Positions 3,664 through 59,676 of a DNA stretch of 64,000 bases are shown in pieces (positions within the stretch are counted from its first letter, which is position 1; every line of letters begins with the position of its first letter). Under the pieces are notes generated by a model that saw only the letters and a program-made list of their open reading frames with translations, had not been told where the DNA came from and did not search any database. Location of the stretch: IMG/VR virus record IMGVR_UViG_3300045988_154892. One strand, written 5' to 3'. The position numbers were made by a program, and so were the translations under genes. This DNA comes from a virus.

Positions 3664-4560
3664 ATGGAATTATTAGGAGCTTATAAAAATGGCAATTATC
3701 GTACTCTTATATTGAGTGATGGGACAAAGATCAGAAAAACAAATGATGATGAGTTTATTCCGGATTTTGCAGAAAATATGGATATCAAAATAACAAATTG
3801 TTGCGATCGAAATTGTCTTATGTGTCATGAAGATAGTATTCCTGATGGGAAACATGGAGATATTATGAACGAAAAGTTTATTGATACTTTACATCCATAT
3901 CAGGAGGTAGCAATCGGTGGCGGTGATATCACTACACATCCTGATTTAATTCCATTCCTACAAAAACTTAAAGAACGAAAAGTAATTGCGAATATTACTG
4001 TAAATCAGATTCATTTTGAACAAAAACAGGATCTGATAAAAAGATTAGTTAATGAAAAACTGATCTACGGTCTTGGTGTATCACTTGTCAATCCAACGGA
4101 AAAATTTATTTCTCTAATTAAGCAATATCCAAATGCAGTAATTCATGTCATTAATGGTATCTTAAAACCATCTGATATCGAAGCATTAGGGAATAATAAT
4201 CTGAAGATGCTGATCCTTGGCTATAAGCAGCTTCGTAGAGGGACTGATTGGTATACAGAAGATCATGAAAATATTGTAGTAAGACAGATGTGGTTGAAAG
4301 AGAACATCTGTAACATTTACGACAAATTCAAAGTTGTGTCATTTGACAATCTAGCCATCGAACAGCTTAATATGCGACGTTTCTTTACGGACAAAGAATG
4401 GGAAGAATTTTACATGGGCGATGACGGAAAATTTACTTATTATATTGACATGGTAGAAAGAAAATTTGCAAAAAGTTCAACAGCGCCAATGGATAAAAGA
4501 TATGATCTGATAGATTCTACAGATGAGATGTTTAGGCGAATTGTGACAGAGAATAAATAA
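3664..4560 (+). CDS. radical SAM enzyme
   Basis: CX3CX2C cluster motif NCCDRNCLMC, glycine-rich AIGGGD SAM motif, SD AGGAGG. Confidence 0.8.
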   Translation: MELLGAYKNGNYRTLILSDGTKIRKTNDDEFIPDFAENMDIKITNCCDRNCLMCHEDSIPDGKHGDIMNEKFIDTLHPYQEVAIGGGDITTHPDLIPFLQKLKERKVIANITVNQIHFEQKQDLIKRLVNEKLIYGLGVSLVNPTEKFISLIKQYPNAVIHVINGILKPSDIEALGNNNLKMLILGYKQLRRGTDWYTEDHENIVVRQMWLKENICNIYDKFKVVSFDNLAIEQLNMRRFFTDKEWEEFYMGDDGKFTYYIDMVERKFAKSSTAPMDKRYDLIDSTDEMFRRIVTENK

Positions 4561-8705: not shown

Positions 8706-9812
8706 GTGTCAGAAAAAGCTTATAAGTATAGAATCTATCCAAATAAAAAACAGCAAGAATTAATCCAGAAAACATTCGGATGCTGCAGATTTGTATATAA
8801 CTATTTCTTAGATAAAAGAAAATCAGAATATGAGAAAGATAAAACATCTTTATCTTACAACGATACAAGTAAACTGCTTACGAAATTAAAGCAAGAATTA
8901 AGCTGGTTAAAAGAGCCAGACAAAGATTCTCTACAGAAAACGCTAAAAGATTTAGATATGGCTTACCAAAAGTTTTTCAAAGAGTATGCTGGTTATCCAA
9001 AGTTCAAGAGTAAAAAGAACAGATACAAGTCATATAGAACCAGTTGTACAAACAACAACATTTCTTTTCAGAACAAACATATTAAGTTGCCAAAGCTTGG
9101 TTTGATTAAAATCCGAGATAGACAAATTACGCAAGGAAGAATCTTAAACGCCACTATCTCACAGGAACCAAATGGACACTACTATTGTTCTTTATGTTGT
9201 ACTGATGTAGATTTTCCACAATATCAGAAAACCAATCAGAATATTGGGATTGACTTAGGTTTAGTAGATTTTGCAATTACGTCTGATGGAATAAAAATTG
9301 AAAATCCTCAGTTTTATGAAAAATCAGAACAGAAACTTGCTAGATTACAGAGAGAACTTTCGAGAAAAACAATCGGTGGTTCCAACTGGAATAAAGTACG
9401 AATCAAAGTTGCGAATCTACAGAAACACGTAGCTAATCAACGCAAGGATTTCTTACAAAAGCTTACTACTCGGATTATAAAACAGAATGACATTATTTGT
9501 ATTGAGGATTTAGATGTGAAATCTATGAAAGAAACAGATACTTCCATTCGTAATAAACGGGTAGGAGATGTATCTTGGTCAGAATTTCGTAGAATGCTTA
9601 CATATAAATCTCAGTGGTATGGAAAAACATTATCTGTTGTAGACAGATATTTCTCATCATCTCAGATTTGTCATTGTTGCGGTTATAGAGACGGTAAGAA
9701 AACAGAAGATATTCGTGAGTGGACATGTTCTGAATGTGGAACTATTCATGACAGAGATATAAACGCTGCGATTAATATTCTTAATGAAGGATTAAGGCTT
9801 TTAAATGTCTAA
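8706..9812 (+). CDS. tnpB: TnpB (RuvC-like RNA-guided nuclease, OrfB)
   Basis: YKYRIYPNKKQ N-terminus. RuvC motifs GIDLGL, CIEDL, HDRDINAAINI. Zinc finger CHCCG...CSECG. Confidence 0.9.
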   Translation: MSEKAYKYRIYPNKKQQELIQKTFGCCRFVYNYFLDKRKSEYEKDKTSLSYNDTSKLLTKLKQELSWLKEPDKDSLQKTLKDLDMAYQKFFKEYAGYPKFKSKKNRYKSYRTSCTNNNISFQNKHIKLPKLGLIKIRDRQITQGRILNATISQEPNGHYYCSLCCTDVDFPQYQKTNQNIGIDLGLVDFAITSDGIKIENPQFYEKSEQKLARLQRELSRKTIGGSNWNKVRIKVANLQKHVANQRKDFLQKLTTRIIKQNDIICIEDLDVKSMKETDTSIRNKRVGDVSWSEFRRMLTYKSQWYGKTLSVVDRYFSSSQICHCCGYRDGKKTEDIREWTCSECGTIHDRDINAAINILNEGLRLLNV

Positions 9813-12260: not shown

Positions 12261-12431
12261 GTGAATCCAATTTTGATCTTTGGAGCAGTATTAGTTACAG
12301 TAATTTTATGGTTTCTGTTGACTTTTCTGTTCCAGCCATTAGGAAAATTCCTACTTCGTATCATAGACGATACGATAGAAACAATGGAAGACGATGAAAA
12401 ACATAAAGAAAAGGAGAAGAAAGAAAAATGA
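12261..12431 (+). CDS. small membrane protein (56 aa) coupled to the SPFH gene
   Basis: GTG after GAGGAGG. Hydrophobic NPILIFGAVLVTVILWFLLTFLF then a charged tail. Stop overlaps the SPFH ATG (ATGA). Confidence 0.55.
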   Translation: MNPILIFGAVLVTVILWFLLTFLFQPLGKFLLRIIDDTIETMEDDEKHKEKEKKEK

Positions 12432-13354
12432 AAAATGGTAAATTAGGTGGAATTGTTTTAGGAGTAGTTCTTGCAGCAGGTTTGATCGTTGGTATCAAAT
12501 GTATGGAAAGAGTTCCAGCAGGATATGTAGGAGTTGTGTATAACTTCTCAAGCGGAATTTCCGATCAGGTGCTAACACAGGGATGGCATTTTGTATCTCC
12601 TACGAAAAAAGTAACTACATATTCGGTTGGTATTGAGCAGTCATACCTTACATCCGAAGATAAGGGTGATTCTCCAAAAGATGAGAGTTTTTCTACACCA
12701 ACATCTGACGGAAAATCTCTTACTGTAGATCTGGAGTTTTCATACAAATTTGATCCAGATAGAATCACAAAGACATTTACGATGTTTAAAGGTCAGTCTG
12801 GAGAGACTGTAAAAAATACGTTTATCAAGCCAAAGATGAGAGCTTGGACACAGGAAGTTACAGCAAAATTCCCTGTTACTGATGTATTTGGGGACAAACG
12901 TCAGGAATTAAATGAAGCTCTTGATGTATATCTGAAACAAAAATTTGAGCCATATGGTATTGTTATTGACACTGTTAATTTTACCAATATTGTAACGGAT
13001 TCGGAGACGTCTGCAGCGATCCAGAGAAAAGTAACTGCACAGCAGGAACTTGAGCTGGCAAATATCGAAGCAAAGACAGCTAAGGTACAGGCCGATAAAG
13101 ATAAAGAAGTGGCTCTTATTGCTGCAGAACAGGAAAAAGAAAAGGCTACAATCGAAGCAGAGCAGAAGAAGATCCAGGCTGAAGGTGAAGCGGAAGCTAC
13201 AAGAATCAAAGCAGAGGCGGAAGCTGAAGCGAATAAAAAGATTGCAGAATCTCTTACTCCAGAGCTGATTGAAAAGCAGAAGATTGAAAAGTGGAGCGGC
13301 GAGGTTCCGCAGGTACAGGGAAGTAATACTCCTATCGTAAGTATTGGAGAATAA
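12428..13354 (+). CDS. SPFH/band-7 (prohibitin/HflC-like) membrane protein
   Basis: N-terminal TM segment, ERVPAGYVGVVYNF...GWHF core, long EAEAEA coiled-coil tail. Confidence 0.85.
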   Translation: MKNGKLGGIVLGVVLAAGLIVGIKCMERVPAGYVGVVYNFSSGISDQVLTQGWHFVSPTKKVTTYSVGIEQSYLTSEDKGDSPKDESFSTPTSDGKSLTVDLEFSYKFDPDRITKTFTMFKGQSGETVKNTFIKPKMRAWTQEVTAKFPVTDVFGDKRQELNEALDVYLKQKFEPYGIVIDTVNFTNIVTDSETSAAIQRKVTAQQELELANIEAKTAKVQADKDKEVALIAAEQEKEKATIEAEQKKIQAEGEAEATRIKAEAEAEANKKIAESLTPELIEKQKIEKWSGEVPQVQGSNTPIVSIGE

Positions 13355-13360
13355 TATTTT

Positions 13361-13390
13361 GTCATCCGTGGTGTCATAGCTACGGATGAC
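13361..13390 (+). terminator. 9-bp hairpin with 12-nt loop GGTGTCATAGCT
   Basis: GTCATCCGT/ACGGATGAC. Only a weak T-run follows, so terminator function is not certain. Confidence 0.45.
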
Positions 13391-13420
13391 ATTTATAAAA
13401 ATATAAAGGAGAAAATACAT

Positions 13421-14050
13421 ATGAAGAAAAAATTAGTGGCAGGAATTCTAATGGCAGCACTTGCGGTATCATGTCTTACTGGATGTGAAGGGTTGAATAG
13501 CGAAGTAAACGATCTAAATGGGTCTATTACGGGTAATACATATAATGCTTCATTTTATACGAATGAAGGTGAAAAGTTCATGGATATGAGCGGACAGAAA
13601 ATTGACCTGGATTCCAATATTGTAGAAGAAGAAACGTATTCAGATGGCAGTTGGGGTTATACGAAAAAATTGTCCAGCGTAGTTACAGTCACAATTGATG
13701 GTAAAGAAGTGGAGAACTGCGGTACTACAATGATCTTTGCGGAAAAAGGACTAAATCCTGATGTGGATTTTCAAAGTCCAGAAGTAATTAATAGTAAAAC
13801 TGATGGCAGTCTTGGAGAGAATGTTATCATTGCAAGCGTTGTCAATAGATTTAAGAATTATTTTGGAAAGGCTCGTGTAGTAGTTATCCAGTCTCAGCTT
13901 GGTGATCCGATTTATGCTTATTCTGGCGATAGTGTGTATTATGAGGTATGCGAAGATTTACCGAAAACGACAAAATTAATGATTGATGGAAAGGCGCTGT
14001 ATATTCACAGAGCTAATTTCCAGATTATCGACAAAGAACTATTGAATTGA
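13421..14050 (+). CDS. lipoprotein
   Basis: MKKKLVAGILMAALAVSCLTGC signal peptide with lipobox. Confidence 0.75.
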   Translation: MKKKLVAGILMAALAVSCLTGCEGLNSEVNDLNGSITGNTYNASFYTNEGEKFMDMSGQKIDLDSNIVEEETYSDGSWGYTKKLSSVVTVTIDGKEVENCGTTMIFAEKGLNPDVDFQSPEVINSKTDGSLGENVIIASVVNRFKNYFGKARVVVIQSQLGDPIYAYSGDSVYYEVCEDLPKTTKLMIDGKALYIHRANFQIIDKELLN

Positions 14051-26113: not shown

Positions 26114-27283
26114 TTGGAGAATAAGGAAAGAGCATTAGCCCATATTGAAAAAATTGAATGGGTAAAACCAATTGAAGGAGCAAATAATATTGAACTCATT
26201 GGAGTGTTAGGATGGGTTTGTGTAGCAAAGAAAGGTGAGTTTCAGACTGGTGATTTAGCAGTTTATATTGAAATTGATAGCAAGTGTCCTGAAAATGATG
26301 AACGTTTCGAGTTTCTGGCAAACAAGAAATACAAAGTCAAGACGATGAAACTTGGAAAGTTTAAAGTAATTAGTCAAGGATTAGCACTTCCATTATCTCT
26401 ATTTCCAGAACTAGATGGAAAAAATATTGGTGATGATGTCAGCAAAGATCTCAAAATTACATATTCTTCTGAAGAAGATGTCAAACGAAAAAGCAATTCT
26501 ATTGATCCCAATGCAAAATTCAAATCTATGGCAGCTCGCCATAAAAATCTCGCAAAGAAAAAATGGTTCAGATGGTTAATGAAACGTGAGTGGGGGAAGA
26601 AATTATTATTCTTCTTTCTTGGAAAGAAACGTGATAATCCAAAGGAGTTTCCAAAATGGATTGTTAAAACCGACGAAACGAGAATTGAAAATGCTCCTTT
26701 TTACTTGCAGAATAAAAACCCATGGATTAAGACAGAAAAATTAGATGGTACTTCCTGTACATTCGCTATAGACCGGCAGAAGAAAGGTAAGGATAAATTC
26801 GAATTTATTGTTTGTAGCAGAAATGTCAGACAAGCAGATAAAAATCAGGAATGCTATCATGACTCTAATATTTATTGGGAACTTGCTGATAAATACGGTA
26901 TTGAAAGCGTATTAACAAAATTGGCAATTGAGAATAATTATGATCGAGTTGTGCTACAGGGTGAAGGAGTTGGATACGTACAGGGTAATCCATATAAATT
27001 TAAAGAGAATAGATTGTATGTATTTAATCTTATTATTGAAGGTAATCGTGTAGGGACGAAAGAGATGGCAGATTTTTGTGATGGTAATAATCTGTTACAT
27101 GTGCCGATTATTTCTACAGAATATTATTTACCTAAAACAATGGAAGAAATGAAACTCGAAGCTGATGGATATAGTGAGATTAATCCAAAAGTTCGAAGAG
27201 AAGGATACGTCTATAGATCTCAGGATGGACAGCAGAGTTTTAAAAATGTCAGTCGAGAATATTTATTAAAACATAATGGATAG
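26114..27283 (+). CDS. ATP-dependent RNA ligase (N-terminal OB, DraRnl/Rnl5-like)
   Basis: N-terminal IEKIEWVKPIEGANNIELIGVLGWVCVAKKGEFQTGDLAVYIEIDS. Motif I EKLDGTS, motif IV LQGEGVG, C-terminal SFKNVSREYLLKH. Confidence 0.8.
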   Translation: MENKERALAHIEKIEWVKPIEGANNIELIGVLGWVCVAKKGEFQTGDLAVYIEIDSKCPENDERFEFLANKKYKVKTMKLGKFKVISQGLALPLSLFPELDGKNIGDDVSKDLKITYSSEEDVKRKSNSIDPNAKFKSMAARHKNLAKKKWFRWLMKREWGKKLLFFFLGKKRDNPKEFPKWIVKTDETRIENAPFYLQNKNPWIKTEKLDGTSCTFAIDRQKKGKDKFEFIVCSRNVRQADKNQECYHDSNIYWELADKYGIESVLTKLAIENNYDRVVLQGEGVGYVQGNPYKFKENRLYVFNLIIEGNRVGTKEMADFCDGNNLLHVPIISTEYYLPKTMEEMKLEADGYSEINPKVRREGYVYRSQDGQQSFKNVSREYLLKHNG

Positions 27284-27292
27284 GAGAATTGG

Positions 27293-28183
27293 ATGAATAG
27301 ACCTACGCTTTGGGTTATGTGCGGGCTGAGTGGAAGCGGAAAATCTACCATTGCCAAGCAATTAGCACAGGAACATGAAAATACAGTTATCGTATCGTCA
27401 GATTCGGTCAGAGAAGAATTAACTGGCGATTATGAAAATCAGGATCATAATGAAGAAGTATTTAAAATATTTCATAAAAAAATTCGTGAGAACTTAGAGA
27501 ATAATAAAAATGTGATTGCTGATGCAACCAATATTACTATGAAATCAAGACGTGCAATTCTTGAGAATGTAAAAGGAATTGATTGCCATAAGGTTGCTTA
27601 TTTGATTCCAAAACCATTTAGGCAATGTAAGATTGATAACCTAGACAGACAACATCCTGTGCCTGAAGAAGTGTTGGATAAGCAGATTAGAAAATTCCAG
27701 ATTCCGTTCATAAAAGAGGGGTTTGACGAGGGGATTATTCATTACATACATAATAAAAATAGATTAGATTCGTTAAAAATGTTTGATAATATGGAAGGCT
27801 TCAATCAGCAAAATCCACATCATACTTCGACACTTGCAGACCATTGTAAGAATACACATGAATTATTCTCAAGATATGGTTATCCGTCAAAATATAATCT
27901 GGCAGCGTTATTGCATGATTATGGGAAATTGTACTGTAAAGAATTAGATAATGATGGAGTTGCGCATTATTACGGGCATGATTCAATTGGTTCATATATG
28001 ATTTTAGAAAATTTTGCAGAAATATTTTATAAAGACGTTGCAGATATGTGTTTTCTAATTAATTATCATATGATGCCATTTGCCTGGAATACAGAAAAAA
28101 TTAAACGACGATGGAAAGAACGTTTTGGAGAATATAAATATCAGATGTTATTAGACTTCCATGAATGTGACATTGCTCGATAG
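27293..28183 (+). CDS. polynucleotide kinase (P-loop) fused to an HD phosphohydrolase domain
   Basis: GLSGSGKST, ADATN; HD part HHTSTLADH, LLHDYGK, YYGHD. Confidence 0.75.
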   Translation: MNRPTLWVMCGLSGSGKSTIAKQLAQEHENTVIVSSDSVREELTGDYENQDHNEEVFKIFHKKIRENLENNKNVIADATNITMKSRRAILENVKGIDCHKVAYLIPKPFRQCKIDNLDRQHPVPEEVLDKQIRKFQIPFIKEGFDEGIIHYIHNKNRLDSLKMFDNMEGFNQQNPHHTSTLADHCKNTHELFSRYGYPSKYNLAALLHDYGKLYCKELDNDGVAHYYGHDSIGSYMILENFAEIFYKDVADMCFLINYHMMPFAWNTEKIKRRWKERFGEYKYQMLLDFHECDIAR

Positions 28184-28276
28184 AGAATAAAAATTAAGAT
28201 GACTGAGATGGTCATTATTATTTTTGGACTATCTTTGTTATAGATATTCTAAAACAAATAGAAAAGGAGTGTAAAA

Positions 28277-30904
28277 TTGAAAGGACTAACAAACGAACAA
28301 GTAAAAATGAGTCGGGAAAAATATGGCTCAAACAAACTACCAGAACCAAAGCTTAAGAAATGGTATGAATTTGCGATTGAAAATATCTTTGGTGATAAAA
28401 CGCTGATGCTGTTATTAGCATTATCTGCATATGAGATTTTCGCTGCAGTATTTGGATTGGCATCATTTTCAGAACCAATCATGGTGATTTTAGTTATTTC
28501 ATTATGTACATATATTGGTGTAAAAATGGCGCTTGGTATTCAAAAATCAACACAAGAACTAAGAGCAAAGACATCAACTAGGTATTGTGATGTTATCAGA
28601 GATGGGCAAGTTCAGACAATCAACAAAGATAATTTAGTTGTTGGTGATGTGGTTTGTATTGGAACTGGACAGGAAATTTACGCGGATGGATATATTATTG
28701 AGGGTAAAATTTCTGTAAGCAATGCTGCTATCAACGGAGAAAGTAAAGAATGTCAGAAAATTCCAATTAATGGTTATGTATACAAAAAATCAACATCCAC
28801 CGATGATTTTACGAATCAAAATAGCTTATTTGCTGGAACAACGATTCTGTCTGGCGAAGGAAAGATGATCGTAGGCGAAGTTGGCGTAAACACCATAAAT
28901 GGTGACACACTTGTAAAAATGCAGACACTTGAGCCACCTAAAACAGCACTTCAGATTGCGATCGATAAACTTTGTGATACAATTTCGAGATATGGAACTA
29001 TTGCTGCAGTCGTCACGTTTATTGCACTTATGGTAACGGATATTGCGTATATTGGATTCAGAGAATATATCAATGGTGGTGTGCTAGAAGTTATCCAAAA
29101 GATTGCACAGAACATTTCGGTTGCTCTAACAATCATTGTAGCTGCTGTTCCAGAAGGACTTCCATTAATTATCAAGCTTGTTACAAAACAGAATGTTAAG
29201 ACAATGGAACAGTTCAACATTCTTGCTAAAAATCCTAATAAGATTCCTGAGTTAGCATACGTTGATCTTATTTGTACTGATAAAACAGGGACTCTTACGA
29301 CTGGTGTTATGACGCCTGTAACTATTATTGATGGACAAGGTAATGAAGTAGATCATGGTTCTGATCTTTGGAAAAATATTGTAAATAATATTTGCTTAAA
29401 CAACAGTGCTACATATGATTCAGAGAATAATATCACAGGTGGAAATTCCATTGACAGAGCGGTTTTAAGTCTTGTTAATCCAAAAGAATGTGAAGATATT
29501 TTTGGAAAGTATCCATTAGTTCAGAAGCAAACTTTTAGTAGTGAAAATAAGTATTCTGCTTTTGAGAGCAAATATAACTGGGGCGAATCGTTTACATATT
29601 ATAAAGGAGCACCTGAAAAACTGATCGAGCATTGTACGCATTGGCTAGATTTAGAAGCCATTCCATTTGGTGGGGATGACAAGAAAAAGCTGTATGACAA
29701 AATTAAGGCTTTAACTGAAAAGTCTATGCGTTGTATCGCTCTTACATTTTCTAATTCACCGCTGGTGGAGAATACATTACCAGACAACATGGTACTTCTC
29801 GGAATCATCGGTGTCATTGACCCAGTAAGAAAAGAGGTTCCAAAGGCTGTGCAGGTCGCTCATGAAGCTGGCATTCAGGTTATCGAGATTACCGGTGATT
29901 GTCATGAAACTGCAGTAGCCGTTGCTACGGAAGCTGGCATTTATAAAGAAGGTGATCTTGCCCTTACAAATGCACAGTTTGAAGCGATGTCTGACGATGA
30001 AGTCAAGAAAATTATTCCTGTACTTCGAGTAATTTCCAGATGCTCACCTAATACAAAACTGAGACTTGTAACATTAGCACAGGAGCTTGGTAGATCAGTA
30101 GCTATGACAGGTGACGGGGTTAATGATAGTCCAGCATTAAAACGAGCTGATGTAGGTTTCGGTATGAATGCTGGATCTGATGTAGCAAAAGAAGCATCCG
30201 ATATTATTCTAACAGACAATAACTTCGCAAGTATTATTAGAGGTGTGGAACTTGGCAGAACATTTATGCACGATATCATGATGTTTTTGGAGTTTCAGTT
30301 GCCAATTAACTTTTCACTTCTTATTTTAAGTATTCTATTTCCTATTTTATCTGGCGGAGTATTACTAGCTTCCGTTCAAATTCTGATTATCAATATTATC
30401 ATGGACTCACTTAATTCCTTATCATTTGGCGGTGAACCTCCGAAAGCTGAATATATGACAGAGAATCCAATTAAGAAGGGTTCTGGATTGTTTATTCGAG
30501 GTGCAAAGAAACGAATTGCTATTAGCACAGTAACATTTATTGTACTATATGGAATTCTTATGTTTTCACCAGTATCAAAATTATTTACAACAGATGTCGA
30601 AGCTATGACTGCAAGATTTGCAATGCTTTGCATCATGTCTGTATGCAATGGATTTGGTATTCGTACAGAACATATTAATTTGCTCAATGGACTGAAAAAC
30701 AATAAAACATTTGTATATATTGCAGCAGGTATTGTACTTGGAACTATTGCCTTATGTAATGTACTCGGTGGACTTATCCAGGTAACAGCAATGAATATGA
30801 GTCAGTGGATCGCAATCATTGGACTATCACTCACGGTAATCGTGGTTGATGTTATTCGAAAATTATTTATCAAAGGAGAGAATAAAAATCATGGGACTAT
30901 TTGA
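28277..30904 (+). CDS. P-type (P2, Ca2+-type) cation-transporting ATPase
   Basis: ICTDKTGTLT, PEGLP (TM4), KGAPE, TGDGVNDSPALKRADVG, NIIMDSLNSLSFGGEPP (TM6-like). TTG start after AAAAGGAG. Confidence 0.9.
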   Translation: MKGLTNEQVKMSREKYGSNKLPEPKLKKWYEFAIENIFGDKTLMLLLALSAYEIFAAVFGLASFSEPIMVILVISLCTYIGVKMALGIQKSTQELRAKTSTRYCDVIRDGQVQTINKDNLVVGDVVCIGTGQEIYADGYIIEGKISVSNAAINGESKECQKIPINGYVYKKSTSTDDFTNQNSLFAGTTILSGEGKMIVGEVGVNTINGDTLVKMQTLEPPKTALQIAIDKLCDTISRYGTIAAVVTFIALMVTDIAYIGFREYINGGVLEVIQKIAQNISVALTIIVAAVPEGLPLIIKLVTKQNVKTMEQFNILAKNPNKIPELAYVDLICTDKTGTLTTGVMTPVTIIDGQGNEVDHGSDLWKNIVNNICLNNSATYDSENNITGGNSIDRAVLSLVNPKECEDIFGKYPLVQKQTFSSENKYSAFESKYNWGESFTYYKGAPEKLIEHCTHWLDLEAIPFGGDDKKKLYDKIKALTEKSMRCIALTFSNSPLVENTLPDNMVLLGIIGVIDPVRKEVPKAVQVAHEAGIQVIEITGDCHETAVAVATEAGIYKEGDLALTNAQFEAMSDDEVKKIIPVLRVISRCSPNTKLRLVTLAQELGRSVAMTGDGVNDSPALKRADVGFGMNAGSDVAKEASDIILTDNNFASIIRGVELGRTFMHDIMMFLEFQLPINFSLLILSILFPILSGGVLLASVQILIINIIMDSLNSLSFGGEPPKAEYMTENPIKKGSGLFIRGAKKRIAISTVTFIVLYGILMFSPVSKLFTTDVEAMTARFAMLCIMSVCNGFGIRTEHINLLNGLKNNKTFVYIAAGIVLGTIALCNVLGGLIQVTAMNMSQWIAIIGLSLTVIVVDVIRKLFIKGENKNHGTI

Positions 30905-31664
30905 CAAACTTTTTGGAAAAAAGACTTCAACAACAAATACTATGGCGGATAATACATCCGCTGTGGTACATGAAGAAAATGCAGCGCAGCCAGTTGTAAT
31001 TGACATGTCTAAGTCAGCAGAAAATCTAAATAATGTGCTAATTAATATGTCGAAATCAAGCAAGATTGATATGACCAAGCATCAAGCAAGGGTTGCGCTC
31101 GCTATGGACTATTCTGGAAGTATGGGTAATCTTTTTGGAAACGGATCTGTACAAGATGTAATTACAAGACTTTTGCCAATCGCTCTTAAATTTGATGATG
31201 ATGGTAAGTTAGAATCTTGGCTATTTTCAAATGATTTTGATTTTCTGAAACCAGTGACAATTGATAATTATAAGAACTATGTTCGAAAAATTATGATGAA
31301 TTCTCGTATGAGCATGGGTGGAACTAATTACGCTCCAGTCTTGAAAGATATTGTTTCCTATTATAAGGACATTGAGCCAAGTACAATTCCAGCATTTATC
31401 ATTTTTATTACAGATGGTGAAAATTGGGATACAGACGAAACAAATAAAATTGTGAGAGAGCTTTCTAATTACAATATGTTTGTACAGTTTGTTGGCATTG
31501 GAAATGAGAATTTTAGTTATCTGAGATCTCTGGATGATATGAAGGGTAGAAAATGTGACAACACTGGATTTATCGCAGTCAAAAACATGAATAGAATGAT
31601 TGACGAAGAACTATATACAGAGCTTTTGAGACCATACAAAGATTGGCTAAATAACAAACAGTAA
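30891..31664 (+). CDS. vWA domain protein (TerF C-terminal-like)
   Basis: MIDAS AMDYSGSMG, FIIFITDGEN. ATG overlaps the ATPase 3' end by 14 nt. Confidence 0.8.
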   Translation: MGLFDKLFGKKTSTTNTMADNTSAVVHEENAAQPVVIDMSKSAENLNNVLINMSKSSKIDMTKHQARVALAMDYSGSMGNLFGNGSVQDVITRLLPIALKFDDDGKLESWLFSNDFDFLKPVTIDNYKNYVRKIMMNSRMSMGGTNYAPVLKDIVSYYKDIEPSTIPAFIIFITDGENWDTDETNKIVRELSNYNMFVQFVGIGNENFSYLRSLDDMKGRKCDNTGFIAVKNMNRMIDEELYTELLRPYKDWLNNKQ

Positions 31665-31683
31665 AAAAGGAGAATATAAAACT

Positions 31684-32322
31684 ATGGCAAACGTAATTAA
31701 TATGAGTAAAAACCAGAAAATCAGCATGACAAAAGAAGATGGAACTGCAATTAAAAACTTTTTCATCGGTGTAAATTGGGATCAGAACCGTTATGCTGGC
31801 GAAGCAGATATTGATTTTGATATTAACGGATTTCTTACAAACGCTGACCGAAAGGTAACTTATCCAAAAGATATCGTAAACTATAATACATATGGTGATG
31901 GTAGCGGATATCCGTGGGTAGAATATTCTGGAGACAATCTTACGGGCGATGATTCTCAAGGGATTACTTTTGACGGACATCATTATGATGAATATTTTAT
32001 TATTCATGCAGATACATTTCCATCAGATAAAACAGACTTCACAATTTGCCTTACTATTTTCAGAGCTGTACAGAGACTACAGAATTTTGGAATGGTTAAT
32101 AACGCAACTATGATGATCTGTGATTATGACAATCCGACAACAAAATGGGAATATGATCTTTCTGAAAATGAGAATTTTGAAAAACTGAACGCTGTAGAAA
32201 TGGGAAGATTATATAAATATGGTAACGGATTCAAATTTCAAGCACTAGGATCTGGTTATATGGGTGGAATGACAGAGCTATTCAAAAATTTTGGACTTGA
32301 TATTGATGAAGGTAGGGACTAA
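31684..32322 (+). CDS. terD: TerD-family Ca2+-binding stress protein
   Basis: IGVNWD, DIDFDINGF, SGDNLTGDD, QNFGMVNNA, FKFQALG. Confidence 0.85.
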   Translation: MANVINMSKNQKISMTKEDGTAIKNFFIGVNWDQNRYAGEADIDFDINGFLTNADRKVTYPKDIVNYNTYGDGSGYPWVEYSGDNLTGDDSQGITFDGHHYDEYFIIHADTFPSDKTDFTICLTIFRAVQRLQNFGMVNNATMMICDYDNPTTKWEYDLSENENFEKLNAVEMGRLYKYGNGFKFQALGSGYMGGMTELFKNFGLDIDEGRD

Positions 32323-32324
32323 TT

Positions 32325-33059
32325 ATGGCAACGTTCATGATCGTAATTCTTGTAATTGCAGCAGTTATATTCTTTACAACAACTAAAACAGGTAAGAGAC
32401 TAAAAATGAGAGCATCAGGAACTGCTGACGAAATGATTAGCAATGATGCGTCTACTCCAGATGGAGCTAAAGCGTATTATAATTCTATAATCTCCAAAAA
32501 AGGAGATAGTTATATAAAAGCAAATTCTTTATATACTCAAATTGAAGGTAAAATCCAGAATTATGAAACACAATTAAGACAGTTGCAGAAAGAGAATATG
32601 CAGATGGATCTTAGTGTTGCATCCTGTATTGATAGAAATGATGACGAAGGTGCAAAAGCATATTTGGCGAAACAACAGGAAGTCGCAGACAAAATCGAAA
32701 CGATTAAAACAACGCTAAAGGAATTAAAAGAGAATAGAGATGTACAGAAAGAAAATTTAACAGCTCTACAGGAAGAAATCAAATCTTTAAAAGCAGAAAA
32801 GGATAAAGCAGTATTCACACTCGAAGCTGCCGAAACTGTGAAATCTTTGCAATCTATTCCAAATACATCAACGCAGGAAGAAAATAAGATGCTTGAGAAA
32901 GTACGCGAAGGTGTCCAGAAAACAAAAGAGCAAGCTGACGGCACAAGAATTGCTTATGAGAATTCCACTGACGTCCAGATGAAACGTTTGGATAAAAAGA
33001 TGAAAGACGAAGAACTTCAGAAAAAATTAGATGCGCTGAAAGCAGCTCAGAAAAAATAA
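32325..33059 (+). CDS. PspA/IM30-like coiled-coil protein with N-terminal TM helix
   Basis: TM MATFMIVILVIAAVIFF, then a long heptad region with DDEGAKAYLAKQQEV...LQEEIKSLKAEKDKA resembling the PspA helices. Starts 2 nt after terD. Confidence 0.55.
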   Translation: MATFMIVILVIAAVIFFTTTKTGKRLKMRASGTADEMISNDASTPDGAKAYYNSIISKKGDSYIKANSLYTQIEGKIQNYETQLRQLQKENMQMDLSVASCIDRNDDEGAKAYLAKQQEVADKIETIKTTLKELKENRDVQKENLTALQEEIKSLKAEKDKAVFTLEAAETVKSLQSIPNTSTQEENKMLEKVREGVQKTKEQADGTRIAYENSTDVQMKRLDKKMKDEELQKKLDALKAAQKK

Positions 33060-33066
33060 TATATTT

Positions 33067-33098
33067 TACTTCGTGCGGTGTAATAGCTGCACGGAGTA
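33067..33098 (+). terminator. 10-bp hairpin with 12-nt loop GGTGTAATAGCT
   Basis: TACTTCGTGC/GCACGGAGTA (one G-T pair). Loop nearly identical to the hairpin at 13361-13390. Confidence 0.45.
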
Positions 33099-56788: not shown

Positions 56789-57835
56789 TTGAATCCGATA
56801 TTCAATGAATATATCAAATTTTTAAGAGACACTTTTGGAGAAGAATTACCTTATTTAAAAGAAGGATTCTTTTGGCTTGATAAACAGATTATAAAAGGCT
56901 TTGATAGTCAACTTGTAGAACATAAATTTTACAGAGTTAAAGTATCAGATAACCTAAAAAAAGTAGAAATTCTAAAATTAAAATCTTATGAAGATCCATC
57001 TGAAGTTGACATAATAAATTGGAATACGATGGTTAGCATCAAAGAGAATCAATTGATAGAACTTGAGCATGAATCCTTATATCTGATACGTGAGAAAATC
57101 AAAGACTATAATGCATATACTCCAATAATACCTGTTTCTATGGGTAAAGATTCTATGGTTACATGTCATTTAGTTCGAAAACTATATCCAAACACAAAAG
57201 CAATATTCAATAATACATCACTTGACTGTGCTGATACATATAAGATGGTTAAACGATTTCCGAATTGCGAAATTATGAATCCAGACAAAGGATTTTATCA
57301 ATATGTAAAATCTGATTCTATGATTCCGTCAAGATTTTCAAGATTCTGTTGTAGGATTTTTAAAGTTGGAGTTATGGTTTCTCAGCTTGATAATAAGCAT
57401 CCGTATTTAATTTTTATGGGAATGAGAAATGAAGAATCAAACACAAGAAGCAATTATCAAGATGAATGGGTTAATACTTCCGAATGGGGAGACACATGTT
57501 GGCAAGGAATACTTCCTATTAGAAAGTGGACAGAGTTAGATGTTTGGCTTTATACATTTTGGAGAGATATTGAAGTCAATTCAAAATATAAAAAAGGATA
57601 TTCAAGAGTTGGATGCCATTGTGCTTGTCCGTATTATGCGAAGTCAACATGGATTCTTGATAAATATTGGTATCCAAAAGCATATAAAAGATGGAGAGAT
57701 ATTCTAAGAGAAGATTTTATTAACAATCAGAAATGGCTGATTATGAATTGCACTATCAAAGAGTATCTTACTCAAGCATGGAATGGTGGTGTGTTTAGAA
57801 GTGAGCCACACAAGAAGTTATTGATGAATTTGTAG
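56789..57835 (+). CDS. PAPS-reductase-like PP-loop ATPase, copy 1
   Basis: PVSMGKDSMV, FCCRIFK, GCHCACPYY. TTG start. The reading frame appears to continue in the -1 frame to 58068. Confidence 0.8.
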   Translation: MNPIFNEYIKFLRDTFGEELPYLKEGFFWLDKQIIKGFDSQLVEHKFYRVKVSDNLKKVEILKLKSYEDPSEVDIINWNTMVSIKENQLIELEHESLYLIREKIKDYNAYTPIIPVSMGKDSMVTCHLVRKLYPNTKAIFNNTSLDCADTYKMVKRFPNCEIMNPDKGFYQYVKSDSMIPSRFSRFCCRIFKVGVMVSQLDNKHPYLIFMGMRNEESNTRSNYQDEWVNTSEWGDTCWQGILPIRKWTELDVWLYTFWRDIEVNSKYKKGYSRVGCHCACPYYAKSTWILDKYWYPKAYKRWRDILREDFINNQKWLIMNCTIKEYLTQAWNGGVFRSEPHKKLLMNL

Positions 57836-58068
57836 AACATACAGGAATTGATAAACAGATTGCGCTGCAATATTTTAATAAGAAATGTTGTGAGTGCAAT
57901 AAGAGAATAAAACATAAGGAAGTTCTTTCAATGAACTTAAAAATACATGGAAGACAAGTTAATAAATTCTATTGTAAGAAATGTTTGATGAAAGAATTCG
58001 ATTGGACAAAAGAAGATTGGGACAAACAGGTGGAAGCGTTTAAGGCTCAAGGTTGTGCGTTGTTCTAG
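57805..58068 (+). other. -1 frame continuation encoding a zinc ribbon (no own start codon)
   Basis: ATQEVIDEFVEHTGIDKQIALQYFNKKCCECNKRI...FYCKKCLMKEFDWTKEDWDKQVEAFKAQGCALF, open from 57805. Confidence 0.5.
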
Positions 58069-58098
58069 GTTTTATTGGTAGAAAGGTGGTGAAAAGTA

Positions 58099-58455
58099 GT
58101 GCATCCGAGTGAGTTTTTTAAGAATTGTTCTCTAAGGACAGGAATTGATATATTTGAAATCTACGATACAGATTTAAAAGAAAAATTAAAAAATGTGCAT
58201 CCAAAGAATTTCCTGAAAACAAAAATTACATTGCCAGTATATAAAGTCAATTTATCTTATCTTACAGAAAAAGGTAATTACAAAACAGTTGACAGATATG
58301 CGGTAATGGATTCAAGTGCAGATGATGAGTATTTTGATTTCTGGCTCGATATGTTTATGAGAGATTATAATAATGATAATCCAAATCACAAGATGATAAA
58401 TTGTGAAATAAACAACATAGAAAGACTTTGCGAAGCTGTACTACCAATTGGTTAG
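58099..58455 (+). CDS. hypothetical protein, module small ORF copy 2
   Basis: Paralog of 56270-56593. GTG after GGTGGTG. Confidence 0.6.
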   Translation: MHPSEFFKNCSLRTGIDIFEIYDTDLKEKLKNVHPKNFLKTKITLPVYKVNLSYLTEKGNYKTVDRYAVMDSSADDEYFDFWLDMFMRDYNNDNPNHKMINCEINNIERLCEAVLPIG

Positions 58456-58662
58456 CTTTTCACCATATGTATTTAATACCTTTGTGCAGCAAAGGTTGTC
58501 ACGATGATTTATAGAAGACGGATCATTGGTTAATATAAATCGAAAAAGCAATGTGGTAGTGACGTAAAAAGACACCCACGATAAAAATGAATAAGTCTCA
58601 TTTTTAAAGAGTATGGCTTTACCTCATTGAAATGAAATAATTTTCAGTGAGGAAAGTACATA
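58456..58662 (+). promoter_or_regulatory. ~205-nt structured leader 2, SD-sequestering hairpin
   Basis: Hairpin ACCTTTG-tgcag-CAAAGGT then TGT. AGTGACGTAAAAAGACACCCACGATAAAAAT. About 15-bp stem, 58617-32 with 58641-56, covers the SD GAGGAAAG. Confidence 0.45.
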
Positions 58663-59676
58663 TTGGTACAGAAAGCTAATACAATTGAGGAACTATTAAA
58701 TGATTGTCCTGTAAATCAAACGATTTGTGACAACTTAATTCGTGCATGGGTAATTATTAATAATACAAAATATAAGAAAATCATTTGTTCAATCTCAGGC
58801 GGTTCTGACAGTGATGTAATGTTAGATATCGTTTGGAGATGTGACAAAGATAATAAAGTAGATTATGTGTGGTTTGATACTGGACTGGAATATCAAGCAA
58901 CAAAAGATCATTTGAAATTTCTTGAAGGAAAATACGATATTGCATTTCATTCTTACAAGGCTATAAAACCTATTCCTACATCTTGCAAGGAATATGGACA
59001 ACCATTCTTATCAAAACAAGTCAGTGAATTTATCCAAAGATTACAAAAGTATAACTTTCAATGGGAAGATGAAGATTTTGACACATTATATAAGAAATAT
59101 CTAAAATGTAAGTCTGCCTTGGAATGGTGGTGTTGCAGCAAAGGTAACGACAGTTGTTTCAATATTACAAGAAACAAATGGTTGAAAGAATTTATGATTG
59201 CAAATCCTCCAACGTTTAATATTTCAAACAAGTGTTGTAAATATGCAAAGAAAAATGTTGCGCATAACATTGTAAAGTATGGAATAGATGGCAAATTATT
59301 TGACTTACAGATTATAGGTATCAGGAAAGCTGAAGGTGGTGCTAGATCAACAGCATACAAATCATGCTTTGATGATAATAACGACATTGACAATTATAGA
59401 CCTTTGTTCTGGTATAAAAATTCAGATAAAGAAGATTATGAGAAAGCATATGGAATTATTCATAGTGATTGTTACTTGGAATATGGTTTAAAACGTACAG
59501 GATGTTGTGGTTGTCCTTATGGAAGAGATTTTGAGAATGAATTAGATGTAATTGAGAAGTATGAACCTAAACTATATAAAGCAGTAACGAATATTTTCAA
59601 AGATTCTTATGAATATACAAGAAAGTACGTGGAGTTTAGAAAAATGATGGATGAGAAGGAGAGAATCAAACAATGA
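58663..59676 (+). CDS. PAPS-reductase-like PP-loop ATPase, copy 2
   Basis: SISGGSDSDV (SGGxDS), KCCKYAKK, GCCGCPYG. TTG start. Confidence 0.8.
   Translation: MVQKANTIEELLNDCPVNQTICDNLIRAWVIINNTKYKKIICSISGGSDSDVMLDIVWRCDKDNKVDYVWFDTGLEYQATKDHLKFLEGKYDIAFHSYKAIKPIPTSCKEYGQPFLSKQVSEFIQRLQKYNFQWEDEDFDTLYKKYLKCKSALEWWCCSKGNDSCFNITRNKWLKEFMIANPPTFNISNKCCKYAKKNVAHNIVKYGIDGKLFDLQIIGIRKAEGGARSTAYKSCFDDNNDIDNYRPLFWYKNSDKEDYEKAYGIIHSDCYLEYGLKRTGCCGCPYGRDFENELDVIEKYEPKLYKAVTNIFKDSYEYTRKYVEFRKMMDEKERIKQ

Follow-up and report, generated by a model that had tools for sequence, protein, structure and literature searches.

The viral record IMGVR_UViG_3300045988_154892, a stretch of 64,000 nucleotides to which we refer in full as the window, contains at positions 28277–33059 on the + strand a compact block of four genes encoding a P-type cation pump, a vWA protein, a TerD-domain protein and a membrane-anchored relative of PspA. 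In infected or lysogenic cells this cassette most likely extrudes Ca2+ and couples that extrusion to the sensing of Ca2+ and to stabilisation of the membrane. The four genes are the following.

28277–30904, + strand: P2-type cation ATPase, PMCA/LMCA1-like, 875 aa (Pfam, PDB and NCBIfam matches; ion-site residues)
30891–31664, + strand: vWA-TerF-like (copine-related) protein with an intact metal ion-dependent adhesion site (MIDAS), 257 aa (Pfam; translation read directly)
31684–32322, + strand: TerD-domain protein of a subtype with an insertion in the acidic Ca2+ loop, 212 aa (Pfam; PDB 2kxt; alignment)
32325–33059, + strand: membrane-anchored PspA/IM30 (ESCRT-III superfamily) homologue, 244 aa (profile, hhalign and fold evidence)

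The operon-like coupling of the four genes is real, and is evident both from the listing of open reading frames (ORFs) and from direct reading of the sequence. The ATG of the vWA gene lies 14 nt inside the 3′ end of the ATPase gene, terD follows the vWA gene after 19 nt, and the PspA-like gene follows terD after only 2 nt. The ATPase gene itself starts with TTG, with AGGAG 8 nt upstream, and among relatives this start codon position is occupied by TTG, ATG or GTG. All four proteins match PHROG families, and relatives are therefore already present in phage collections. An earlier note on this DNA, made without database searches, had proposed the same four co-directional, tightly coupled genes and the same four family assignments, all of which hold against the Pfam, profile, hhalign and fold evidence described below.

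The gene order is fixed across a large set of phages. The earlier note had suggested a survey for the same adjacency, and searching of the IMG/VR viral contigs (mostly about 80–217 kb) with the ATPase, the fourth protein and two TerD alignments yields about 160 viral loci with the order pump, vWA (where present), one or three copies of TerD, and PspA-like. Matches to the window-type TerD show pump, vWA, TerD, PspA-like, or a contig-end truncation of that order, in 80 of 80 cases. Matches to the canonical TerD are more varied: 68 of 80 have pump, three TerD genes and PspA-like, seven have pump, vWA, three TerD genes and PspA-like, one has a duplicated PspA-like gene, and four are partial, without the pump gene. 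Pump and PspA-like genes always occur together with one or more TerD genes and in the same order, which is unchanged where identity to the ATPase falls to 47% and to the PspA-like protein to 33%. The cassette as a whole occupies more than one position, lying downstream of RNA ligase and kinase genes in the window and upstream of both in loci L051–L053. All four genes are under purifying selection, with dN/dS values of 0.10–0.21 for the pump, 0.10 for the vWA gene, 0.08–0.10 for the PspA-like gene and, lowest in the block, 0.02–0.03 for terD. Recurrence and constraint of this kind go beyond chance.

The earlier note had also considered that the block might be a recently captured host operon, and this alternative fails. 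The PspA-like marker occurs only 10 times in 185,579 species genomes (one genome per species), and a hidden Markov model (HMM) of its family finds 232 relatives among 1.84 billion protein representatives; it is therefore not a common host operon. Six of the 10 species-genome loci have the cassette, three of these together with phage marker genes, and the other four have an ABC-type relative described below; phage genes surround the ABC-type loci L062 and L063, and every locus whose neighbours were examined is phage-like. The best 120 database matches of the pump all belong to the phage family itself. Against 50,697 phage records, a tblastn search with the ATPase returned mostly host-like contigs deposited as phage, at approximately 30% identity, and a nucleotide search with the block returned only short matches, about 130 nt long, to mislabelled Listeria contigs.

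The pump has the hallmarks of a P2-type ATPase. It matches the Pfam families E1-E2_ATPase (5.5e-32) and Cation_ATPase_C (1.2e-28) as well as Cation_ATPase_N and Hydrolase, its hydropathy fits about 10 transmembrane (TM) segments, its closest PDB structures are plant ACA8 (PMCA-type), Listeria LMCA1 and human SPCA1 (E-values of 1e-82 to 1e-89), and its top NCBIfam model is TIGR01517 (PMCA-type Ca2+-ATPase), ahead of the PMR1, SERCA, H+ and Mg2+ types. The P2-type signatures first read from the sequence, DKTGTLT (residues 335–341), PEGLP (292–296) and TGDGVNDSPAL (611–621), are indeed there and are conserved: in 12 family members of 49–100% identity, DKTGTLT, KGAPE, DPVR, TGD and TGDGVNDSPAL are all kept, as are the Glu of PEGLP, the Asn of M5 and the Asn/Asp of M6, and INIIMD aligns with VNLIMD of ACA8. 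The positions corresponding to the SERCA site-I Glu residues (M5 and M8) are non-acidic, and the pump therefore resembles a single-site (site II) exporter like PMCA or LMCA1. With LMCA1, PMCA/ACA8 and SPCA1 it shares the domain order, DKTGT, PEGLP, the N..D of site II in M6 and the loss of the site-I Glu, but it is only about 30% identical to these, falls below the NCBIfam equivalog cut-off, and has a different A-domain loop. The dephosphorylation motif of the A domain is near-universally TGES, but in 12 of 12 family members the loop is NGES or NGET, with the Glu kept and the Thr replaced by Asn (residues 152–157; window positions 28730–28747), a departure that the first reading of the sequence did not mention.

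The second protein matches the Pfam family vWA-TerF-like (PF10138) at 4.1e-59 (200.5 bits, with a cut-off of 29.4) and Copine at 2.5e-10. Its MIDAS DxSxS, reported as intact by the earlier note, is complete in the translation, with D73-x-S75-x-S77 followed by GGT and TDG, and an N-terminal MG[LF]F.KLF is conserved in relatives. We make no claim that this N-terminus (MGLFDKLFGKK) is an amphipathic membrane helix, its hydrophobic moment being weak (0.26).

The third protein matches TerD (PF02342) at 1e-35 (123.3 bits, with a cut-off of 25.3) and the structure of Klebsiella TerD (PDB 2kxt) with an E-value of 7e-25. Ca2+ binding is established for the Klebsiella homologue, and even after decades there is no agreed mechanism for TerD and the Ter clusters. 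The reference form of the canonical Ca2+ loop is GDN(R/L)TGEGDGDDE, and it is kept in the variants with three TerD genes, with or without vWA. The earlier note had the acidic loop conserved in the window, and this is true of GDNLTGDD; the canonical GDGDDE part, however, is split by an insertion of 7–8 residues, SQGITFDGHHYDE, that is typical for the single TerD of cassettes with the order pump, vWA, TerD, PspA-like. A C-terminal ‘DIDEGRD’ tail of TerD was considered as a ligand for the MIDAS of the vWA protein and rejected, the tail being absent in the variant that has vWA and three TerD genes.

The fourth protein is a homologue of PspA/IM30, of the ESCRT-III superfamily, as the first reading of the sequence had guessed. 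By itself it matches PspA_IM30 (PF04012) with 23.1 bits, under the cut-off of 33.9, and since this single-sequence match is sub-threshold the assignment draws on evidence of three other kinds. First, a profile of eight family members compared with all PDB sequences has as its top seven matches exclusively Vipp1, PspA and IM30 (E-values of 8e-5 to 4e-3), in alignments that span 106–159 residues in register, with unrelated short coiled coils ranking below. Second, 6 of the 8 members match PF04012 individually (best 7.8e-11), some of the 232 relatives pass it independently with 45–115 bits, and hhalign of the family against PF04012-positive proteins gives 99.5%, the comparators having themselves been retrieved by the profile of this same family. 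Third, the AlphaFold2 model (mean predicted local distance difference test score 77, and above 90 in the hairpin) has a TM helix at residues 2–19 followed by helices at 45–103, 107–176 and 183–243, which is the ESCRT-III/PspA layout of a long alpha1/alpha2-3 hairpin followed by alpha4 and alpha5; all of the top 10 Foldseek matches in the PDB are Vipp1 or PspA, with a probability of 1.0, and E. coli PspA (4whe) superimposes with a root-mean-square deviation of 2.0 Å. The amphipathic helix alpha0 of PspA is absent, and in its place is the hydrophobic TM helix (residues 1–19) followed by the basic sequence KTGKRLKMR, from which, by the positive-inside rule, the PspA part should face the cytoplasm.

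Three further elements lie at the borders of the block.

28199–28225, + strand: short hairpin (ATGAC/GTCAT) followed by a T-rich run, TATTATTTTT, between the upstream kinase gene and the cassette (conservation)
28235–28245, + strand: the element TTGTTATAGAT, a candidate extended −10 promoter (conservation)
33067–33098, + strand: covarying 13-bp RNA hairpin closing the block (folding and covariation)

The T-rich element is kept by relatives, including those with another gene upstream. Every close relative also retains TTGTTATAGAT, regardless of which of three neighbours lies upstream, and so does L023, whose ATPase is 67% identical. Conservation extends over about 60 nt before the start codon, with TATTATTTTT followed by TTGTTATA(G/A)AT and then by AAAAGGAG. 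We infer that this is the regulatory region of the cassette itself, with a putative extended −10-like promoter, and that the element at 28199–28225, at which a terminator scan made no call, may be an upstream terminator or an UP-like element. A generic promoter scan was not above the shuffled background (46 sites compared with 36 ± 4.5), and the proposal of a promoter is therefore an argument from conservation. The hairpin at the 3′ end has a 13-bp stem with a folding energy of −20 kcal/mol and is paired in 100% of the cells compared, in six distinct sequences with three compensatory pairs and several G.U pairs; since it relies on G.U pairs it can form only in the + strand transcript. The earlier note had the block closed by this hairpin, which is indeed real and covarying, but it is not a canonical intrinsic terminator: it has no U-tract, it is followed by ACUAAGUG, and the terminator scan made no call there. 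With what appears to be its own promoter region and with a 3′ RNA hairpin, the cassette has a moron-like layout.

The phage also encodes an SPFH module that is loosely associated with the cassette.

12261–12431, + strand: small TM protein, 56 aa, its gene overlapping the SPFH gene
12428–13354, + strand: SPFH/Band 7 protein
13421–14050, + strand: DUF5052 lipoprotein

The SPFH gene of the window is 15 kb from the cassette, and the earlier note had nonetheless linked the two. The link is real: in 13 of 80 relatives an SPFH gene is found within about 0.1–3 kb of the cassette, either adjoining the PspA-like gene or about 1.4–3 kb downstream of it, and in L111 the cassette is followed 1.4 kb later by the pair of small TM and SPFH genes. 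PspA of B. subtilis depends on the SPFH protein YdjI for its recruitment to the membrane (PMC8581546). Like the pspA-ydjGHI locus of that organism, the phage pairs a PspA homologue with an SPFH protein, the two genes being adjacent in some relatives; it differs in that the phage PspA has its own TM anchor, the SPFH gene is 15 kb away in the window, and no homologue of YdjG or YdjH was identified.

We give an even chance to the reading that the block is a self-contained phage accessory operon which maintains a sealed cytoplasmic membrane and a low level of cytosolic Ca2+ in its host, during infection or lysogeny. The pump would expel the Ca2+ that a perturbed membrane lets in from the Ca2+-rich gut lumen. 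TerD, with the vWA protein as an optional adaptor, would bind Ca2+ and act as a cytoplasmic buffer or sensor, and the anchored PspA-like protein would polymerise on the inner leaflet and stabilise or reseal the bilayer, with the phage SPFH protein helping as in the YdjI–PspA system of B. subtilis. The net effect would be a sealed and energised membrane and low cytosolic Ca2+ in a cell surrounded by the Ca2+-rich gut. This reading is supported by the family and ion-site assignments, the PspA membership of the fourth protein, the fixed order in about 160 loci, the purifying selection, the conserved 5′ region, the covarying 3′ hairpin, the Ca2+ binding of Klebsiella TerD, the proximity of the SPFH gene and the SPFH–PspA link demonstrated by experiment in B. 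subtilis (PMC8581546). Several observations weigh against it. First, the Ca2+ specificity of the pump is a prediction from its ion-site residues, and its score with TIGR01517 is 455.4 bits, under the equivalog cut-off of 507. Second, the T-to-N change in the TGES loop could alter the turnover of the pump. Third, the acidic loop is interrupted in the window TerD subtype, and Ca2+ binding there is therefore uncertain. Fourth, the vWA protein is dispensable, being absent from the variant with pump, three TerD genes and PspA-like. Finally, the TM-anchored PspA (TM-PspA) family also pairs with an ABC importer and a solute-binding protein with an OmpA domain, without TerD, so that the PspA part may serve phage-borne transporters in general and not belong to a Ca2+-triggered device.

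This last arrangement forms a sister module. Beside a homologue of the fourth protein it encodes the permease and the ATPase of an ABC system, a soluble coiled-coil protein and a solute-binding protein of the NMT1 type that has an OmpA domain. The module is present in Bacillus phage G (L001, gp243–gp250, with gp247 as the homologue), in the gut phage MT835556, in a 266-kb contig and in Oscillospiraceae prophages (loci L001, L002, L062, L063 and L066). In bacteria, a context of ABC ATPase, permease and PBPB-OmpA has been described for TM-PspA/Snf7 proteins, with no mention of TerD, vWA or calcium (PMC11237479); the window shares with those operons a TM-anchored PspA beside a transporter, but has a P-type pump, TerD and vWA in place of the ABC components and the solute-binding OmpA protein, and has no AAA+ ATPase. 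P-type Ca2+-translocating ATPases, some of them closest to Bacillota, have meanwhile been reported in Jug (jumbo gut) phages and others, including a few phages of 159–197 kb (PMC12880540, 2026). In the Jug phages the pump is co-transcribed with an upstream gene of 77–91 aa, the phage ATPase is highly transcribed, and a terD gene adjoining a pspA-like gene is at a separate locus (PMC12880540).

The earlier note knew of no phage with a P-type Ca2+ pump fused into an operon with Ter and PspA components, and as regards phage-borne pumps of this type it is superseded. The likeness extends to a P2 Ca2+-type pump in gut phages; the differences are that TerD and the PspA-like protein of Jug phages are in other operons than the pump, whereas the phages considered here have a single fixed cassette, and that the Jug host is Bacteroides, whereas the window lineage belongs to Clostridia and has a TM-anchored PspA-like protein. 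No paper joining pump, TerD/vWA and PspA in one unit was found in the literature searched. The fused operon is thus new, its parts are known, and its novelty is partly pre-empted by the 2025–26 report of phage Ca2+ pumps; in phages of Clostridia, the recently reported pumps belong to a larger membrane module.

The pairing of the TM-PspA family with two unrelated types of transporter, one P-type and one ABC-type, the latter known in bacteria as well (PMC11237479), also bears on an explanation centred on transport, in which the pump is the effector and resets host Ca2+ (or Mn2+) to the benefit of replication, and the other three proteins do no more than buffer the ion and ease the membrane stress caused by inserting a large foreign transporter. 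It agrees with the hypothesis of host Ca2+ resetting and the high transcription of the ATPase in Jug phages (PMC12880540). However, TerD is the most constrained protein of the block and is triplicated in many variants, more than is expected of a passive helper, and the Jug pump works without adjacent TerD or PspA genes (PMC12880540). We regard this transporter-centred function as unlikely.

The coupling of extrusion, sensing and membrane stabilisation may also be put in a stronger form, as a Ca2+-gated ESCRT-III membrane-repair circuit that would be a prokaryotic counterpart of Ca2+-triggered plasma-membrane repair in eukaryotes. The eukaryotic process brings together a Ca2+-binding module, the vWA domain of copines, an ESCRT-III polymer and a PMCA-like pump, and the trigger of the bacterial PspA-type ESCRT-III proteins is still debated. 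In the phage circuit TerD would sense Ca2+ entering through a lesion, with the copine-like vWA protein as adaptor, the TM-anchored PspA polymer would be recruited or activated at the lesion together with SPFH, and the PMCA-like pump would then reset cytosolic Ca2+. The likeness is one of analogy only, homologues of ALG-2, ALIX and Vps4 are absent, and we hold this stronger form to be possible but fairly doubtful. If it is true, the long-enigmatic TerD family can be assigned a definite task, that of sensing Ca2+ for PspA-type membrane repair in bacteria. In either form, a constrained operon joining a Ca2+-type pump, TerD and PspA is a compact and tractable system for studying Ca2+ as a signal from membrane damage to repair.

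The genes of the window are on one strand, with a GC content of about 32%. Downstream of the block are a homologue of YorF (41% to that of Clostridium phage c-st), an AAA_24 protein, a helicase and primase region, an NAD-dependent ligase, DNA polymerase III alpha and a helicase resembling RecD; the phage is therefore a large one of the SPbeta/c-st-like kind. Close homologues are found in Blautia sp. AF17-9LB and, at L057, inside a 499-kb scaffold of Ruminococcus sp. AM36-2AA, and the host is therefore one of the gut Clostridia and the phage can integrate. The window thus belongs to a large temperate SPbeta/c-st-like phage of gut Clostridia. Cultured lysogens appear to exist in these two strains, and the module, being carried by many abundant large gut phages, could affect the fitness of lysogens in the Ca2+- and bile-rich gut.

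A temperate, integrated phage with a moron-like cassette, having its own conserved 5′ region and 3′ hairpin, also invites the explanation that the block protects the lysogen or excludes superinfection in the manner of Ter clusters, through resistance to other phages, pore-forming bacteriocins, bile or antimicrobial peptides. Superinfection exclusion has been proposed for the Ter components found in jumbo phages (PMC7824862), and Ter operons have been linked to the inhibition of phages and to resistance against colicins (PMC8123226). The terZABCDEF clusters, with TerD, a TerF-type vWA protein, TelA and TerC, share with the block the TerD and TerF-type vWA domains and a proposed sub-membrane function. 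They differ in that the window has separate genes for vWA and then TerD, and a P-type pump and a PspA homologue replace TerC and TelA: no match to TerC, TerB, TelA, phosphoribosyltransferase or HAD was found among the four proteins, and none to TerC, TerB or TelA in the flanking genes, so that the block is without these components and without nucleotide-signal enzymes. It also has no PADLOC match, the scan of defence-system models giving only weak coiled-coil noise (E-value of about 2e-3), and the early, replication and tRNA-repair genes on the same strand around it fit lytic expression equally well. Protection of the lysogen as the main purpose is in our view somewhat unlikely.

Just upstream of the block, at 26114–28183, are genes for an RNA ligase (PHA02142 OB and RNA_ligase) and for an HD-domain AAA_33 kinase, which could plausibly work together in tRNA repair against anticodon nucleases. 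In L071, a relative, a GIY-YIG homing endonuclease splits the kinase gene. The purpose offered by the earlier note was counter-defence, the operon blunting abortive-infection effectors that depolarise or perforate the membrane; the ligase and kinase-phosphatase neighbours, as a plausible tRNA-repair or anti-defence pair, and the union of membrane protection with ion extrusion in one cassette both speak for it. However, no known anti-defence homology was found, and the action would have to outpace pore-forming effectors; we regard this purpose as very unlikely.

There are several other observations on the cassettes of relatives. Identity to the window is mosaic among the loci compared (L004, L011 and L016): L004 has an ATPase that is 100% identical and a PspA-like protein at 89%, and L016 has an ATPase at 80% and a TerD at 97%, which suggests frequent recombination inside the block between related phages. 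The 250-kb contig IMGVR_UViG_3300029402_000234 has two cassettes (L102 and L123) about 190 kb apart in opposite orientation, and may reflect either a real duplication or a concatemer made in assembly. In most of the diverged variants of the cassette, whether of the vWA or of the three-TerD type, there is a micro-protein of 27–39 aa with a single TM segment (consensus MIVLNIGVF...GRK.KK) that starts 0–4 nt past the stop codon of the PspA-like gene or overlaps it by 4 nt (L051 after 8720, L018 after 13214, L026, L030, L055, L057–L061 and L088–L132). No such ORF was found after the PspA-like gene of the window, whose clade has the covarying hairpin at that place. The peptide could be a regulin-like partner of the pump or an anchor for PspA, and at L026 a LemA-family protein (12895–13437) directly follows it downstream of the cassette.

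Elsewhere in the window, an IS605 OrfB/TnpB-type gene with a Cas12f-like TNB domain lies at 8706–9812, inside the early region of the phage, and auxiliary metabolic or modification genes at 1015–1809, 3664–4560 and 56789–59676 encode an NAD synthase, a protein with a weak radical-SAM match and two PAPS-reductase-domain proteins.

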